From an uncultured Chromatiales bacterium (lineage in GTDB: Bacteria > Bacteroidota > Ignavibacteria > SZUA-365 > CAYQST01): 64,000 bases of DNA. Shown here piece by piece: positions 5,624 through 49,879 of this stretch; position 1 is the stretch's first letter, and each line of letters opens with the position of its first letter. The notes under the pieces were generated by a model. It was given only the letters and a program-made list of their open reading frames with translations. It had not been told where the DNA came from and ran no database searches. Location of the stretch: assembly GCA_964420295.1 (NCBI GenBank), contig CAYQST010000010.1:6554-70553 (forward strand), read 5' to 3'. The translations under genes were made by a program, and so were the position numbers.

Positions 5624-6067
5624 ATGACGCAGAGATTGTATCGCAAACGGAACGACAAGGTAGTGGCAGGCGTGGCGGCGGGACTGGGTGAGTATTTCGA
5701 TGTGGATCCGGTGTTCATTCGTCTCGTGTTCGTGCTTCTGGCCTTCATTCACGGACTCGGAATCCTCGCCTACATCGTGCTCTGGATTCTGGTGCCGGCT
5801 CGGGAATCAACCTACGCGATGAATCCCCCGGTGGCCGATGTCTCGATGCCCCCTGCCCCCGCGACGCGCAAGGGTGGTGGACAACTGATGAGCCGGGTTC
5901 TGGGCATCATCTTCATCGTGCTTGGAGGACTGTTTCTACTGGATAATCTGGTGGACTGGTTGCCGATCGACGATCTGTGGCCGATTTTGTTGATCGTCCT
6001 GGGCGTGGTGATTCTCCTGGGATCGAAGAAGGAACACGGTCAATCCGGTCAGGAGGTGCTGTCATGA
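5624..6067 (+). CDS. PspC domain membrane protein with C-terminal TM hairpin (LiaI/DUF5668-like)
   Basis: RLYRKRNDKVVAGVAAGLGEYFDVDPVFIRL is the PspC signature. Confidence 0.9.
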   Translation: MTQRLYRKRNDKVVAGVAAGLGEYFDVDPVFIRLVFVLLAFIHGLGILAYIVLWILVPARESTYAMNPPVADVSMPPAPATRKGGGQLMSRVLGIIFIVLGGLFLLDNLVDWLPIDDLWPILLIVLGVVILLGSKKEHGQSGQEVLS

Positions 6068-6984
6068 AACGCGGATCGATTTTCTGGGGCATTCTGATGG
6101 TGGTGTTTGGCAGCCTTTTTCTTATCAACAACACCATCGGTTTCGCCTGGGACTGGAGCGGGGTGTGGGCCTGGTGGCCCCTGGTGCTGATTGCGCTCGG
6201 CGTGAGCATGTTCTTCAAGGGCGAAAAATGGAGCTGGGCGGGATATGGATTCGCCGCCACTCTGTTCGGCGTGATGCTGTTCGCCCTCTTCCATCGCGGC
6301 TGCAATGTGGGCGATCACGAAAGCTCCCTCGCGGGGCGGCAGACGGTCACGCAGAAAATGGATGTGCCCTTCGACTCCGCCGTGCGTACGGCCTCCCTGT
6401 CGATCTCGATGGGGGCCGGCACCCTCGTGCTTCGCGATACCACCTTGCCCTTGTTCGCGGTGGATGCCCGTAGCAGCGTGGGACGGTACGAACTAACCCG
6501 TGAAATCCTCGGAGACAAGGCCACCCTTCAGTTGTTCATGGAAGACAACCACGTCTCCTGGAAGGGCGGCAAACTCAACAACGCCGTATTGCTTGGATTG
6601 AACACCGCCCCGGCCTGGGATGTGGATCTCGATATCGGCGCGGCGGAGGCCGATCTGGATTTTTCGAAAGTGAAGCTCACCACCCTGTCCCTCGACGCCG
6701 GAGCCGCTTCCATCAAGGTGCGCCTGGGCGAACAGATGCAGGATGCCGACGTGTCGATGGACGTGGGCGCCTCCAACGTGGTGATCTATCTGCCCGAATC
6801 CCTCGGCTGTGAGGTCGAATCCCAAACGGCCCTCGCGTCAACGTTCTTCGAAGGCATGACAGAGGAATCCGAAGGACGCTATGTCTCACCCAATTACCAC
6901 TCCGCGCCCCACAAAGTGCGCATGCGGATCGATGGCGGGGTGTCGAGCATCAAGGTGAAGCGCTACAGTGGCAAGGATTTCTGA
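6064..6984 (+). CDS. LiaF-like membrane protein (four TM helices plus a C-terminal beta-rich domain)
   Basis: ATGA overlap with pspC; IFWGILMVVFG...WWPLVLIALG N-terminus; repeated xDxGAxxxxL beta strands. Confidence 0.7.
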   Translation: MKRGSIFWGILMVVFGSLFLINNTIGFAWDWSGVWAWWPLVLIALGVSMFFKGEKWSWAGYGFAATLFGVMLFALFHRGCNVGDHESSLAGRQTVTQKMDVPFDSAVRTASLSISMGAGTLVLRDTTLPLFAVDARSSVGRYELTREILGDKATLQLFMEDNHVSWKGGKLNNAVLLGLNTAPAWDVDLDIGAAEADLDFSKVKLTTLSLDAGAASIKVRLGEQMQDADVSMDVGASNVVIYLPESLGCEVESQTALASTFFEGMTEESEGRYVSPNYHSAPHKVRMRIDGGVSSIKVKRYSGKDF

Positions 6985-7004
6985 TCTCGAACGAATGCGA
7001 AATG

Positions 7005-7037
7005 AAAAGGGGCGACTCCACGGTCGCCCTTTTTTTT
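7005..7037. terminator. Bidirectional intrinsic terminator
   Basis: AAAAGGGGCGAC-TCCACG-GTCGCCCTTTTTTTT between convergent genes. Confidence 0.85.
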
Positions 7038-7055
7038 CATGCACGGGATGGGAGA

Positions 7056-7169
7056 TCAGATGACGCCGAGAAATTTCAACGCCACGATCACGATGCCGAG
7101 GCCCATGGCGCCGGCAACGAGAAGTAATTCCACCGGCACCTTGCCGGAGCGTTCCTTGGATTCAGCCAT
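7056..7169 (-). CDS. 37-aa single-TM small protein, absent from the ORF track: MAESKERSGKVPVELLLVAGAMGLGIVIVALKFLGVI
   Basis: Hand translation; charged N-terminus plus a hydrophobic segment of about 22 aa; host-like codons; ends just before the bidirectional terminator. Confidence 0.7.
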   Translation of the reverse strand: MAESKERSGKVPVELLLVAGAMGLGIVIVALKFLGVI

Positions 7170-7202
7170 GATGGTTTCCGTCTGGTTGGTGAAACGAGAG
7201 GT

Positions 7203-7232
7203 GAGAAAAGAGTCCGGATGGAAATCCGGGAC
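7203..7232 (-). terminator. Terminator-like hairpin between the RAPP ORF and the small ORF
   Basis: Minus strand reads GTCCCGGAT-TTCC-ATCCGGAC followed by TCTTTTCTC. Confidence 0.55.
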
Positions 7233-7241
7233 GCGGGCGTT

Positions 7242-7592
7242 TCAGACCAGAACGGGAGGAGCTCGCGGCGGAGCGCCGGGGACATCGGGAGGGAGGGGAA
7301 GGAGAGGAGAGAAAGGGCGTACATGAATGCGAAGTCGCGCGGGTGGCGATGGCCGTCGCGCAAGCGAGCGGTGTGCCACCACGGGGCGGGATTCTTCCTG
7401 CCTCTGGTCGACGGCCGCCAGGTCCCGCTCGATGACATCGCGGCCAGGGCCTCGCTGCATCGGAGGGAGAAAGGGCGGGAGGGTCGAAAGGGTGCATTCG
7501 CGGGGATCACCGGAGCCGCCGCCCAGGGTTGGCAGGCGGAATTCCGCCAGCAGGGCCAGGATGACGAACAGTATGAGTCCGGTGCGCTTCAT
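7242..7592 (-). CDS. 116-aa exported Pro/Arg-rich protein ending in a RAPP motif; candidate ribosome-arrest leader
   Basis: N-terminal MKRTGLILFVILALLA signal/TM segment; C-terminus ...PGAPPRAPPVLV*. Confidence 0.65.
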   Translation of the reverse strand: MKRTGLILFVILALLAEFRLPTLGGGSGDPRECTLSTLPPFLPPMQRGPGRDVIERDLAAVDQRQEESRPVVAHRSLARRPSPPARLRIHVRPFSPLLPLPPDVPGAPPRAPPVLV

Positions 7593-7700
7593 GCACTCAA
7601 GCTAGAAAATCTTCCCGCAAATGCAAGACGAATCCTTCTCCCGCACGAGGCCGCGGTGTTATATTTCCGCCAACACACGCATCAGACCCGCGAGCCACGC

Positions 7701-8120
7701 ATGGATCATTACATCATCGGGAAAAAGGATCTGGACAATCTTCTCCACATACTCGGTCTCCTGAAACCGGGAGAAAAACTTACCTATGTGGACAATCTCT
7801 CTCTGATCGATCAGAGTCGGGATCAGGTGGGGTTGGGCGTGTGCTCCTCCGAGGAAGCAGTGCCCCTGGGGTCCGATCATGCCCTGCTCACCGATCAGCA
7901 ATTGAAGTATCTGTTCATCCGTATCGCTTCCCTAGAACTGATGCTGCATCAGCAAAAGGGGATGTTGAAAAAGGAAATGGAAAAGGTGCTGGACGAGATG
8001 GAGAAACGCTCCCTGTCCCACCCCGCCACCGAGGATACCCTGCCCCCCGAGATCCAGATTCAGCTGGATGAAGAAATCTCCCGCATCCTGTCCGGCGATT
8101 CCGACCGCGATGAGGACTGA
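7701..8120 (+). CDS. Hypothetical protein, 139 aa, acidic C-terminus
   Basis: Host-like codon use from ATG 7701; ends 11 nt before the next gene. Confidence 0.65.
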   Translation: MDHYIIGKKDLDNLLHILGLLKPGEKLTYVDNLSLIDQSRDQVGLGVCSSEEAVPLGSDHALLTDQQLKYLFIRIASLELMLHQQKGMLKKEMEKVLDEMEKRSLSHPATEDTLPPEIQIQLDEEISRILSGDSDRDED

Positions 8121-13792: not shown

Positions 13793-13889
13793 GAAAAGGG
13801 TGGAAGGGGGGGGGTGAATGCGTGAATGGGGGAATGCGTAAATGGCCGCGTTCTCTTCCTCTTAACCCTTCACTCTTTTCTCTCTTGAC
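13793..13889. repeat. Composite palindromic element, site C: purine arm, octamer core, inverse heptamer arm
   Basis: GAAAAGG GTGGAAGG, G9, GTGAATGC GTGAATGG GGGAATGC GTAAATGG, then TCTTAAC CCTTCAC TCTTTTC. Confidence 0.7.
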
Positions 13890-18502: not shown

Positions 18503-18609
18503 AGTGTGAAGAGAAAAGAGTAAAGGCGTGTATACGTGAATAGGTGAATGAGTGAATACGATAATGGGTGAAGGAGCGCCCCCTTTACTCTTTCCCCTTT
18601 ACTCTTCCC
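18499..18609. repeat. Composite palindromic element, site D
   Basis: GTGAAGT GTGAAGA GAAAAGA GTAAAGG / GTGTATAC GTGAATAG GTGAATGA GTGAATAC GATAATGG GTGAAGG / CCTTTAC TCTTTCC CCTTTAC TCTTCCC; first unit holds the upstream TGA. Confidence 0.8.
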
Positions 18610-46302: not shown

Positions 46303-47259
46303 ATGAAAAAAGCACTCATCACTGGAATCACGGGTCAGGACGGCAGCTATCTGGCGGAACTCCTTCTTGCGAAGGGCTATGAGGTTCATGGCATCGTTCG
46401 TCGCGTGGCGATCGAGGACCATGAACACCGGCTCGGTCGGATCAAGCATCTGCTCAGCGACATCCGCATCCATCCCGCTTCCCTGGAAAGCTACCCGAGT
46501 CTGTTCAACGTGGTGCGCGCCGTGGAGCCCGACGAATGCTACCACCTGGCGGCGCAGAGCTTCGTGAGTTATTCCTTCGAGGACGAGTTTTCCACCTTCA
46601 ACACCAACATCAATGGCACCCATTACATGCTGTCGTCGATCAAGCAGGTGGTACCCGACTGTCGGTTCTACTTCGCTGGTTCGAGCGAGATGTTCGGCAA
46701 GGTGGAGGAAGTCCCGCAGAACGAAAACACCCGCTTCCATCCTCGTTCCGCCTACGGTATCACCAAGGTGGCTGGCTACGAGCTGACGCGGAATTATCGC
46801 GAAGCCTACGGTTTGAAGACTGCCAACGGGATTCTGTACAATCACGAATCTCCCCGTCGCGGTTTCGAATTCGTCACCCGGAAGATTACCTCCACCGTTG
46901 CCCGGATCAAGAAAGGGCAGGCGAAGGAACTCCGACTGGGCAATCTCGATGCCAAGCGGGACTGGGGCTATGCGAAGGAGTATGTGGAGGCGATGTGGAT
47001 GATCCTTCAGCAGGAACAGCCTCAGGACTTTGTGATCAGCACCGGCGAGACCCACAGCGTGCGCGAATTCGTCGAAATCGCGTTTTCCAGCGTGGGCCTG
47101 AACTGGCAGGACCATGTCGTCGTCGATCCCATTCTCTTCCGCCCCGCCGAAGTGGATATCCTCCTCGGCAACCCCGCCAAGGCCGAACGAGAGCTCGGGT
47201 GGAAGTCCTCGACCTCGTTTCGGGAATTGGTGGAGTTGATGGTAATGAGTGAAGAGTAA
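46303..47259 (+). CDS. gmd: GDP-mannose 4,6-dehydratase
   Basis: ALITGITGQDGSYLAE, PRSAYGITK, NHESPRRG, LGNLDAKRDWG. Confidence 0.96.
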   Translation: MKKALITGITGQDGSYLAELLLAKGYEVHGIVRRVAIEDHEHRLGRIKHLLSDIRIHPASLESYPSLFNVVRAVEPDECYHLAAQSFVSYSFEDEFSTFNTNINGTHYMLSSIKQVVPDCRFYFAGSSEMFGKVEEVPQNENTRFHPRSAYGITKVAGYELTRNYREAYGLKTANGILYNHESPRRGFEFVTRKITSTVARIKKGQAKELRLGNLDAKRDWGYAKEYVEAMWMILQQEQPQDFVISTGETHSVREFVEIAFSSVGLNWQDHVVVDPILFRPAEVDILLGNPAKAERELGWKSSTSFRELVELMVMSEE

Positions 47260-47318
47260 AGAGTGAAGAGTAAAGAGTGAAGAGTAAAGAGTAAAGAGTA
47301 AAGAGTTAAGGGTAAAGT
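47249..47318 (+). repeat. Heptamer array site E (10 units)
   Basis: (GTGAAGA GTAAAGA)x3, GTAAAGA x2, GTTAAGG, GTAAAGT; the gmd TAA lies in unit 2. Confidence 0.92.
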
Positions 47319-47360: not shown

Positions 47361-48557
47361 ATGAACGTTCCTCTTCTTGATCTCAAGCCGCAGTATCAGG
47401 CCCTCAAGGCCGAACTGGATTCCGCTCTCCTTCGTGTTGCCGAGAGCCAGTACTTTATTTTGGGTCCCGAAGTCAAGCAGCTCGAGGCCAATATCGCCGA
47501 GTATGTCGGCACGAAGCATGCCATCGGCGTGTCCTCGGGCACCGATGCCCTTCTCCTTGCTCTGATGGCCCTGGGCATTGGGCCGGGTGACGGAGTGATC
47601 GTGCCCACCTTCTCCTTTTTCGCGACGGCCGGGGTGGTGTCGCGGCTGGGGGCGACTCCGATTTTCGTGGACAATGATCCGGTGACCTTCAACATCGATC
47701 CGAAGGCCGTGGAGGCCGCGCTGGAGTGTTACGCGCATTCCGACATCACGGTCAAGGCCATCACGCCCGTACATCTGTTCGGGCAGGCGGCAGACATGGA
47801 TGGCATCATGGCCATCGCCGCGCAGCACGGCCTGAAGGTGGTGGAAGACTGTGCCCAGGCCATCGGGGTGCAGTACAAGGACGGACGCCGCGTCGGGAGC
47901 ATCGGCGACGTGGGGTGTTTCTCTTTCTTCCCGAGCAAGAACCTCGGATGTTTCGGAGACGGTGGCATCATCACGGTGAACGACGACGCTCTGGCTCACA
48001 TGATCGAGATCATGCGGGTGCATGGCGGCGAGCCCAAGTACTACCACAAGGTGATCGGCGGCAATTTCCGCATCGATGCCATCCAGGCGGCGGTGCTGAA
48101 CGTGAAGCTACCTCATCTGGATAGTTGGCACGAGGGACGTCGGCGTAACGCGGCCTTCTATACCAAGCATTTCGTGGAAGCGGGACTTGCCGAAGGAACC
48201 GGAAGAACCGCGTTCGACGACAAGAATGCCGTGCTTCTGCCCGCCAGTGTGTACGAGGATCAGGGTCACGCCCATCCCTACCTGCACATCTACAACCAGT
48301 ACTGCATCCGCGTACAGGATCGGGACGGACTCATCGATCACTTGCGCGCCCATTCCATCGGATGCGAAATCTATTATCCGGTTCCCTTCCACAAGCAGGA
48401 ATGCTTCCAGGACGTGCCCTCGTCCCGCGGTACCTATCCGCAGGCGGACGCGGCAGCCGGGTCGATCCTCGCCCTGCCGATTTTTCCGGAATTGACGGAA
48501 GAGCAGTTGGGGTATGTGGTGGAGGTGGTAAGGATGGGGGTAAAGAGTAAAGTGTAA
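47361..48557 (+). CDS. DegT/DnrJ/EryC1/StrS aminotransferase (WbpE-like)
   Basis: VEDCAQAIG, FSFFPSKNLGCFGDGG (PLP lysine), GGNFRIDAIQAA. Confidence 0.93.
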   Translation: MNVPLLDLKPQYQALKAELDSALLRVAESQYFILGPEVKQLEANIAEYVGTKHAIGVSSGTDALLLALMALGIGPGDGVIVPTFSFFATAGVVSRLGATPIFVDNDPVTFNIDPKAVEAALECYAHSDITVKAITPVHLFGQAADMDGIMAIAAQHGLKVVEDCAQAIGVQYKDGRRVGSIGDVGCFSFFPSKNLGCFGDGGIITVNDDALAHMIEIMRVHGGEPKYYHKVIGGNFRIDAIQAAVLNVKLPHLDSWHEGRRRNAAFYTKHFVEAGLAEGTGRTAFDDKNAVLLPASVYEDQGHAHPYLHIYNQYCIRVQDRDGLIDHLRAHSIGCEIYYPVPFHKQECFQDVPSSRGTYPQADAAAGSILALPIFPELTEEQLGYVVEVVRMGVKSKV

Positions 48558-48574
48558 AGAGTAAAGCGTAAAGC
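48540..48574 (+). repeat. Heptamer array site F (5 units), left arm of the four-helix-bundle cassette
   Basis: GTAAAGA GTAAAGT GTAAAGA GTAAAGC GTAAAGC; encodes the last residues and the stop of the aminotransferase. Confidence 0.9.
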
Positions 48575-48590: not shown

Positions 48591-48962
48591 ATGGAAATCA
48601 AATTTCGACGATCTCATACGAAGCTGTTGGTTTGGAAAAGGGCGATCGAGCTCGTTGTTCTGGTATATCGTACGACGGAGCACTTTCCTCGTAGCGAAAG
48701 CCTTGGTCTTGTTACGCAGATGCGGCGAGCCGCCGTGTCCATCCCAAGCAATATTGCCGAAGGTGCTGGTCGCGGCTCCACAAAGGAGTTTCTTCGACAC
48801 CTCCGCATCGCACGGGGATCCCTCAGTGAGCTGGAGACCCAGATGTTCATTGCCCAAGAACTCACGCTCTGCATCCAACCCGAAATCACTCTCTCGCTCT
48901 GTCACCAAGTATCACGACTCCTGAGCGGCCTCATCAATCGTCTCAATCGAGCAGATCCCTAA
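48591..48962 (+). CDS. Four helix bundle protein (23S rRNA intervening-sequence protein family)
   Basis: LLVWKRAIEL, FPRSESLGLVTQMRRAAVSIPSNIAEGAGR, FLRHLRIARGSLSELETQ. Confidence 0.95.
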   Translation: MEIKFRRSHTKLLVWKRAIELVVLVYRTTEHFPRSESLGLVTQMRRAAVSIPSNIAEGAGRGSTKEFLRHLRIARGSLSELETQMFIAQELTLCIQPEITLSLCHQVSRLLSGLINRLNRADP

Positions 48963-48991
48963 CCCTTCACCCTTCACCCTTCACTCTTTAC
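48957..48991 (-). repeat. Inverse heptamer array (5 units), right arm of the cassette
   Basis: Plus strand CCCTAAC CCTTCAC CCTTCAC CCTTCAC TCTTTAC, starting across the four-helix-bundle stop. Confidence 0.9.
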
Positions 48992-48995
48992 CATC

Positions 48996-49862
48996 TTGAA
49001 AGGCCTCATCCTTGCCGGGGGCTCCGGCACCCGGCTCTATCCGTTGACGCGGGTGGTGAGCAAGCAGCTCCTTCCCGTGTACGACAAGCCGATGATCTAC
49101 TATCCCCTCACCACGCTGATGCTGGCGGGGATTCGGGAGATCTGCATCATTTCCACGCCCACGGACCTGCCACGATTTCGGGATCTGCTCGAAGATGGAT
49201 CCCGGTTCGGGGTGTCGTTTACGTATGTGGTGCAGGAGAGTCCCGACGGACTAGCTCAGGCCTTCATCCTCGGAGAGGAATTCATCGGGGGAGAGCCGAG
49301 CTGTCTGATTCTGGGGGACAATCTCTTTCATGGGTCACACCTGGCGCGCACCCTGCAGGAGGCCTCGCAGTTGACGGAGGGGGGCTGCATCTTCGCCTAT
49401 CAGGTGAGGGATCCCGAACGGTATGGCGTGGTGGAGTTCGATGCCGGCGGACGGGCGGTTTCCATTGAAGAAAAGCCCACGCGGCCCCGATCGACCTTTG
49501 CCGTGCCGGGCATCTACTTCTATGATGGCACGGCGTCGGCGCGGGCCCGCGCCCTTCGACCCTCGGCGAGAGGAGAGCTGGAAATCACCGATCTGAATCG
49601 GGTCTATCTCGAGGAAGGGCATCTGCAGGTGAAGATTCTCAGCCGGGGCACGGCCTGGCTCGACACGGGCACCCACGAATCCCTGCTTCAGGCCTCGCAG
49701 TTCATCCAGACGATTGAATTACGTCAGGGACTCAAGATTGGCTGTCCCGAGGAGGTGGCGTATCGGATGGGATTCATCGATCGGGAAACCCTGAGAAAGG
49801 CCGGGGAAGAGATGAGAAAGAACGAGTATGGGCTGTATTTGTTGGAAGTGAGTGAAGAGTAA
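48996..49862 (+). CDS. rfbA: Glucose-1-phosphate thymidylyltransferase
   Basis: [35 protein letters not shown]; TTG start. Confidence 0.96.
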
Positions 49863-49879
49863 AGGGTGAAGAGTGAAGG
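49852..49879 (+). repeat. Heptamer array site G (4 units)
   Basis: GTGAAGA GTAAAGG GTGAAGA GTGAAGG; holds the rfbA TAA and ends in the rfbC SD. Confidence 0.88.

Follow-up and report, generated by a model that had tools for sequence, protein, structure and literature searches.

A small membrane-protein gene with an abundant RNA and a predicted fold-back leader that overlaps an open frame with a near-terminal RAPP, in an uncultured bacterium

The DNA considered here is a 64,000-nucleotide (nt) stretch of contig CAYQST010000010.1 from an uncultured bacterium of the Ignavibacteria (Bacteroidota), referred to below as the window, and the subject is a unit on its minus strand in which a 116-codon open reading frame (ORF116, 7592..7242) precedes a 37-codon gene (sORF37, 7169..7056). 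ORF116 opens with the signal-like N-terminus MKRTGLILFVILALLAEF and runs to a C-terminus, DVPGAPPRAPPVLV, at its stop codon; four of its last codons, CGA GCT CCT CCC at 7265-7254, encode R110, A111, P112 and P113, an arginine-alanine-proline-proline (RAPP) motif. Between the two frames lie a hairpin (7232-7212; 8-bp stem with one bulge, −9.2 kcal/mol) and, directly 3′ of it, the U-rich tail UCUUUUCUC (7211-7203). sORF37 encodes the 37-residue protein MAESKERSGKVPVELLLVAGAMGLGIVIVALKFLGVI and is followed by a two-way intrinsic terminator (7003..7034, stem 7029-7010, −14.3 kcal/mol) that it has in common with a LiaF-like gene converging from the other side. A preliminary description of this DNA had reported a C-terminus reading APPRAPPVLV, a RAPP motif at 7254-7265, a hairpin with a U-rich tail beginning 9 nt past the stop of ORF116, and a strong terminator after the small frame; all of this anatomy is present on the minus strand, with exactly 9 unpaired nucleotides separating the stop from the hairpin.

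sORF37 is a real gene for a small membrane protein. Its codon score of +0.55 bits per codon is typical of the trusted genes of the window, as is its guanine-plus-cytosine (GC) content at the three codon positions (0.63/0.37/0.74), and off-frame windows of equal length all have a lower codon score. Strain variants, located through DNA similarity, differ inside the gene at three positions (7057, 7059 and 7110), all of them silent, and a paired change from ATC TGA to ATT TAA keeps both the isoleucine and the stop; on these comparisons the gene is under purifying selection. The protein is polar at its N-terminus and carries a single membrane-spanning segment at its C-terminal end. The preliminary description had introduced it as an unannotated single-span frame; the frame and its one membrane segment stand, but the gene has already been called by gene callers on 13 contigs and is present in one NCBI record. 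A search of 1.84 billion representative proteins returned only the self-match, in clusters made up of this species alone, and Pfam, NCBIfam and PDB hold no match for sORF37, ORF116 or the alternative frames. By these searches sORF37 is apparently restricted to this lineage.

The strain differences are unevenly spread along the region: seven fall within 108 nt at 6996-7110, covering the terminator, the 3′ untranslated region and sORF37, and two within the next 590 nt. This cluster, in which at least three haplotypes are found (that of L001, X19 and X25; that of X34; and that of the window itself), points to either local recombination or a 3′ untranslated region under relaxed constraint.

The RNA of sORF37 is abundant. 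The RNA evidence consists of unstranded assembled contigs, in which zero depth does not prove absence. When four metatranscriptomes (X26-X29) were compared with the first 20 kilobases (kb) of the window, the sORF37 contig was the only genuine match across that span in X28 (depth 20.6) and X27, the strongest match in X26 and tied for first in X29, and the RNA of this gene is the most consistently detected one across the 20 kb in these four data sets. In five runs with signal at the locus, four of them labelled as RNA, only the sORF37 part assembles, so that its RNA is detected where ORF116 RNA is not. The contigs end inside ORF116, at 7279 (X26), 7280 (X29), 7281 (X31) and 7271 (X27); these four runs come from three studies, and X26, X27 and X29 carry a metatranscriptome label, while no type is on record for X31. 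Six DNA runs, by comparison, assemble straight through 7281, and the RNA therefore has a 5′ end at about 7281, in codon 104 of ORF116. Shorter forms are also represented, with contig ends at 7180 (X28) and 7196 (X34).

The first 44 nt of this main RNA (7238..7281, minus strand), which correspond to the last 13 codons of ORF116 and its stop and spell PGAPPRAPPVLV in that frame, constitute the 5′ arm of a predicted helix. The 3′ arm (7130..7196, minus strand) comprises the leader just upstream of the sORF37 start codon together with codons 5-13 of the gene. The helix is interrupted and has about 38 bp, and starting at nucleotide 7281 its pairs have probabilities of about 1; the AUG of sORF37 lies in an internal loop, the RAPP codons at 7254-7265 are all base-paired, and the hairpin at 7232-7212 forms the tip. 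Both its strength and its statistics are unusual. The duplex energy of the 5′ arm with the sORF37 start region is −52 kcal/mol, as against −25.3 ± 5.6 kcal/mol for 3458 genomic 44-mers, the leader-to-start pairing is the strongest among 26 genes, and the whole-transcript fold has a z-score of −3.7. Structured RNA in the roughly 370 nt upstream (7282-7650), on the other hand, is not significant on either strand. Opening the region from −15 to +16 around the sORF37 start costs 18.2 kcal/mol in the main RNA, compared with 9.2 ± 3.5 and a maximum of 15.6 kcal/mol for 17 other genes; for RNAs beginning at 7196 and 7180 the cost is 8.7 and 6.5 kcal/mol, respectively.

The explanation that we favour, at about an even chance of being correct, is that sORF37 has an abundant RNA of its own, with a 5′ end produced at about 7281 by initiation or by processing, and that the fold-back helix both stabilises this RNA and throttles its translation. 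The main transcript would extend from about 7281 to the terminator at about 7003, and its first 44 nt would fold back onto the region around the start codon, with the small hairpin at the helix tip. A fully paired 5′ end may render the RNA stable and hence abundant, and the helix probably represses translation initiation on sORF37 until it is opened. Opening might occur through loss of the 5′ arm, as in the shorter forms that begin at 7180-7196, or alternatively through an upstream ribosome, a helicase or temperature. Under this explanation, the APPRAPP of ORF116 would be no more than an incidental translation of the C/G-rich 5′ arm in that frame, and the hairpin at 7232-7212 would not be a regulated terminator.

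The preliminary description had assigned that hairpin a different role, in which stalling at RAPP decides whether the hairpin and its U-rich tail terminate transcription before sORF37. The pair does match a terminator-like pattern and is placed between the two frames, and in the trp, his and pheA leader attenuators, too, a hairpin with a U-rich tail follows closely on the end of an upstream ORF. Unlike those leaders, however, this locus offers neither an antiterminator pairing nor a regulatory codon run. The hairpin forms with a probability of about 1 in nascent RNA carrying 0, 40 or 90 nt of upstream sequence, and no competing antiterminator was found; the sole partner of the RAPP region lies past the U-tract, too late for a termination decision, and a ribosome at RAPP would end about 10 nt short of the hairpin stem. 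The hairpin is also weak, RNA contigs cross it at constant depth, and the sORF37 RNA is more abundant than the leader RNA, the reverse of an attenuator pattern. Since there is no alternative pairing, the contigs read through the hairpin and the leader is scarcer than the downstream RNA, a terminator-type attenuator is not supported, and we regard it as highly improbable. The same description had counted a promoter of the small frame's own as evidence against its model, and the start of the main RNA at about 7281, inside ORF116, comes close to that situation.

The pairing of a locked full-length RNA with shorter, more open forms is also what a type I toxin-like module would display, namely a stable and abundant mRNA whose full-length form, with its 5′ end at 7281, is held shut by the fold-back and becomes translatable only after removal of the first 85-100 nt (5′ ends 7196-7180), with an antisense RNA to be expected. 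Like the products of dinQ, tisB, zorO and aapA1 (PMC5066626, PMC7708055, PMC5416894, PMC11228461), the sORF37 peptide is short and hydrophobic, and, as in those systems, its mRNA is abundant and structured and has a 5′ end predicted to sequester the start. There is a parallel with dinQ in particular: removal of the first 44 nt activates an inert dinQ transcript (PMC5066626), and 44 5′-terminal nucleotides sequester the start region of sORF37. The lineage-restricted, orphan character of the peptide, the unusual abundance of its RNA and the shorter forms in X28 and X34 would fit such a module as well. Nevertheless, no antisense RNA is known here and no plus-strand promoter or terminator was found for one, the contigs being unstranded; the gene is single-copy without paralogues, its codon usage matches that of host genes, and its membrane segment is C-terminal with no charged tail. 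Moreover, the ends at 7180 and 7196 each come from a single run and could be coverage artefacts. A toxin-like module is, in our estimate, improbable.

Several findings weigh against the favoured explanation of an independent, self-folding sORF37 RNA. Position 7281 is crossed by contigs of X20 and X30, and X25 covers 7286-7793, all without strand information; some samples thus contain transcripts of the ORF116 region, and RNA that includes ORF116 may exist. No recognisable promoter, and no sigma-70-like promoter in particular, was found upstream of 7281, so the end may be a processing site or an exonuclease stop on a longer, ORF116-containing transcript; the window shows no enrichment of TAnnTTTG, the promoter motif of Bacteroidetes. 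Covariation offers no support for the helix, as no relatives were found. Finally, codons 1-60 of ORF116 look truly coding, and use of its start codon would necessarily bring ribosomes to RAPP and the 5′ arm.

Whether ORF116 is a protein-coding gene is uncertain, and its two ends behave differently. Codons 1-60 score 0.34 in full and 0.24 on synonymous choice only, with fewer than 1% of stop-free off-frame windows higher, and the N-terminus reaches a Kyte-Doolittle hydropathy of 3.51 over 11 residues after K2 and R3, in keeping with the signal or transmembrane segment proposed for it earlier. The only strain difference within the frame, at 7446, is silent in it. Judging from these statistics, ribosomes may well translate the beginning of ORF116. 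By contrast, codons 81-116, which include RAPP, look non-coding (−0.71 in full, −0.42 synonymous-only), and the overall score of −0.05 lies under all 165 real-gene windows of equal length. No homologue was found among 5.8 billion proteins, and an ATG-started frame of at least 116 codons appears in 9% of dinucleotide shuffles of 7170-7700. The GC-rich, strand-skewed stretch has four of its six reading frames open, and the frame of ORF116 stays open in part of it because the strand at 7282-7320 consists of pyrimidines only and cannot hold stop codons. This strongly skewed tract, CGCCCTTTCTCTCCTCTCCTTCCCCTCCCTCCC (7282..7320, minus strand), lies just upstream of the RNA 5′ end; its motif CGCCCTTTCTC recurs at 7467-7477, and similar C/T-rich sequence is found upstream of other genes of the window. 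Two further candidates were considered for this frame and set aside: a frameshifted pseudogene passing from the ORF116 frame to that of 7510..7088 near 7380, whose second frame scores only weakly and lends no support, and an apparent 34-nt deletion in ORF116 of locus L004, which is a run of N in the scaffold.

The RAPP motif itself can be read in two ways. Six-frame translation of the window yields 28 occurrences of RAPP, RAGP or RAPG, including 10 of RAPP, and 7 of the 28 fall within 15 residues of a stop, so that the motif in ORF116 occurs at the rate expected by chance for unused frames of the window. The trusted genes have no such motif in 12,230 residues; the RAPP of ORF116 therefore belongs either to a tail that is not normal coding sequence or to a deliberate arrest site. 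The tail of ORF116 appears, from its codon statistics, to be shaped by something other than protein coding, and base-pairing constraint is a sufficient non-protein explanation of its C/G-rich codons.

The second possibility is that ORF116 is a translated and exported RAPP arrest peptide, or a translationally coupled leader, in which a stalled ribosome would free the start region of sORF37. It retains the idea of the preliminary description with translational unmasking in place of transcription attenuation, and it could operate only on transcripts that contain ORF116. A ribosome stalled with P112 in the P-site and P113 in the A-site would cover approximately 7273-7241, that is, the 5′ arm of the helix, and export of the N-terminus would pull on the nascent chain and release the stall. 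When 7273-7241 is held single-stranded in the folding model, the cost of opening the sORF37 start drops from 18.2 to 9.4-9.6 kcal/mol, close to the genome average. The layout would suit this as well, as RAPP lies about 90 residues past the signal segment, R110-P113 end three residues before the stop, and the start of the co-directional sORF37 follows 72 nt downstream; the signal-like N-terminus, the coding appearance of codons 1-60 with their silent polymorphism and the lack of RAPP-like motifs in trusted genes point in the same direction. Published work finds proteomes to be depleted of RAPP and RGPP, with both motifs enriched at the C-terminal ends of small exported proteins encoded upstream of diverse genes, and seven of seven such proteins from Streptomyces lividans stall ribosomes (PMC12992588). 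However, with no homologue of ORF116 there is no evidence that its RAPP is conserved, the scores of its final 36 codons are those of non-coding sequence, the motif is as common as chance would make it in unused frames, and most sORF37 RNA lacks the ORF116 start and is seen where ORF116 RNA is not. A copper-related class of upstream ORFs is also reported to be missing from Bacteroidota, the phylum of the nearest relatives, which bears only indirectly on this locus (PMC12992588). We treat arrest by unmasking as a tentative alternative that is, on the whole, unlikely. The interpretation given in the preliminary description thus stands in part: the coding statistics of codons 1-60 and the position of RAPP within the masking helix speak for it, whereas terminator attenuation does not hold.

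Comparison with characterised arrest peptides gives a similarly mixed picture. With ApdA, ApdP, CruR and the upstream ORFs of S. lividans (PMC7897499, PMC10951233, PMC10987492, PMC12992588), ORF116 shares an export signal, a near-terminal RAPP, a close co-directional gene and an RNA structure that, according to the folding model, could be opened by a ribosome at RAPP. It differs from them in having no homologues, in the non-coding statistics of its tail, in the lack of the leader ORF on most of the target RNA and in that its stalling is putative. The target here is a 37-residue orphan membrane protein rather than secretion machinery, a TonB-dependent receptor, a copper or thiol-redox gene or a sigma factor. 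Furthermore, ORF116 was said earlier to lack the CxxC motif of copper-sensing CruR, and this is confirmed, as it contains a single cysteine and has no Pfam match to DUF2946 even at E = 10. The logic of SecM-secA and MifM-yidC2, in which arrest codons lie in the 5′ arm and the 3′ arm covers the downstream start region, is the same as that proposed here. Unlike in those systems, the helix has about 38 bp, reaches into coding sequence and begins exactly at the 5′ end of the main RNA, and there is no Shine-Dalgarno motif to hide in this genome.

That last feature is general in the window, where most start codons lack a visible Shine-Dalgarno motif ahead of them. The upstream regions are A/C-rich and often read CCATC ATG, that of sORF37 included, and initiation signals in this lineage appear unusual.

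In its boldest form, which we consider doubtful, the arrest scenario would make ORF116 a genuine exported RAPP arrest peptide of a deep-branching, Shine-Dalgarno-less relative of the Bacteroidota, in which a stalled ribosome opens the 38-bp helix that locks sORF37, and the end at 7281 is a protected, processed product; the locus would then be a monitor of secretion or of the membrane whose sole output is a tiny protein encoded beside PspC and LiaF. If this were true, it would extend the RAPP class, itself broadened only recently, to a lineage without Shine-Dalgarno-guided initiation and add to its targets a tiny membrane protein next to envelope-stress genes, suggesting that the monitoring of export is linked to the membrane stress response. 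If instead the favoured explanation of a self-folding sORF37 RNA is true, the locus is an ordinary yet clear example of a small-protein gene with a fold-back leader in an almost unsampled lineage, and it carries a warning that, in GC-rich DNA, a RAPP near a stop codon can arise from constraints at the RNA level.

The neighbourhood of the unit agrees with the preliminary description, which had it divergent from housekeeping genes and convergent on an envelope-stress operon: PspC and LiaF-like genes are found converging on it and genes for a 139-residue protein and for a flavin adenine dinucleotide (FAD)-dependent protein diverging from it; a PhoU gene is also among the converging genes. The PspC-domain gene (5624-6067) and the LiaF-like gene of the DUF5668 type (6064-6984) overlap by 4 nt, and this pair is kept in distant Bacteroidota and Ignavibacteriales genome bins. 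On the plus strand, the 139-residue gene (7701..8120) has its start at 7701 by alignment with six homologues from Bacteroidota genome bins, all of which begin at the equivalent position. Gene callers and the NCBI record give instead a 300-residue protein at 7218-8120, an over-extension by this alignment; the additional 161 codons are antisense to ORF116 and have a non-coding codon score. The 139-residue protein belongs to a small uncharacterised family without a Pfam domain, whose members share the pattern M-x-I-I-R-Y-A-I-R-K-x-D-L-H... and are found at L007:1164-1604, L008:891-1322, L009:872-1288, L010:980-1411, L011:899-1330, L012:867-1274 and L023:951-1379. The family was missed by word-indexed protein search and was found by tblastn in loci retrieved via the FAD-dependent protein. 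No Rfam family or tRNA was detected in the region.

Relatives of the unit were sought through both ORFs and through three neighbouring genes. The loci that hold the neighbouring genes, in Bacteroidota genome bins and in metagenomes, lack both ORF116 and sORF37. Homologues of the LiaF-like protein are at most 35% identical and keep the PspC-LiaF pair, with nothing resembling either frame beside it, and the tblastn loci with 139-residue homologues carry a different upstream gene. With the 139-residue neighbour as the query, genome and protein searches returned nothing. A scan of metagenomes returned one locus, which has no shared gene order. For a strain of about 90% identity, present in X16, no assembly spans 7056-7700, even with the likeness threshold at 80%. 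Across loci L007-L012 and L022, the nearest species representatives, labelled as Bacteroidota genome bins, have 57-64% identity for the conserved 528-residue FAD-dependent protein, and the nearest LiaF-like proteins have 33-35%. Metagenomes that contain the organism come from wastewater, biofilm, sediment and wetland, and it is poorly sampled.

Several intergenic regions of the window also contain arrays of a 7-nt unit, GTRAAGA (complement TCTTYAC / ACCCTTC), in up to 10.9 copies, at 13812-13845, 18511-18606, 47242-47317, 48540-48573, 48962-48992 and 49850-49879. C/T-rich tracts lie just upstream of several start codons, and both the arrays and these tracts could serve this organism as promoter or leader elements.

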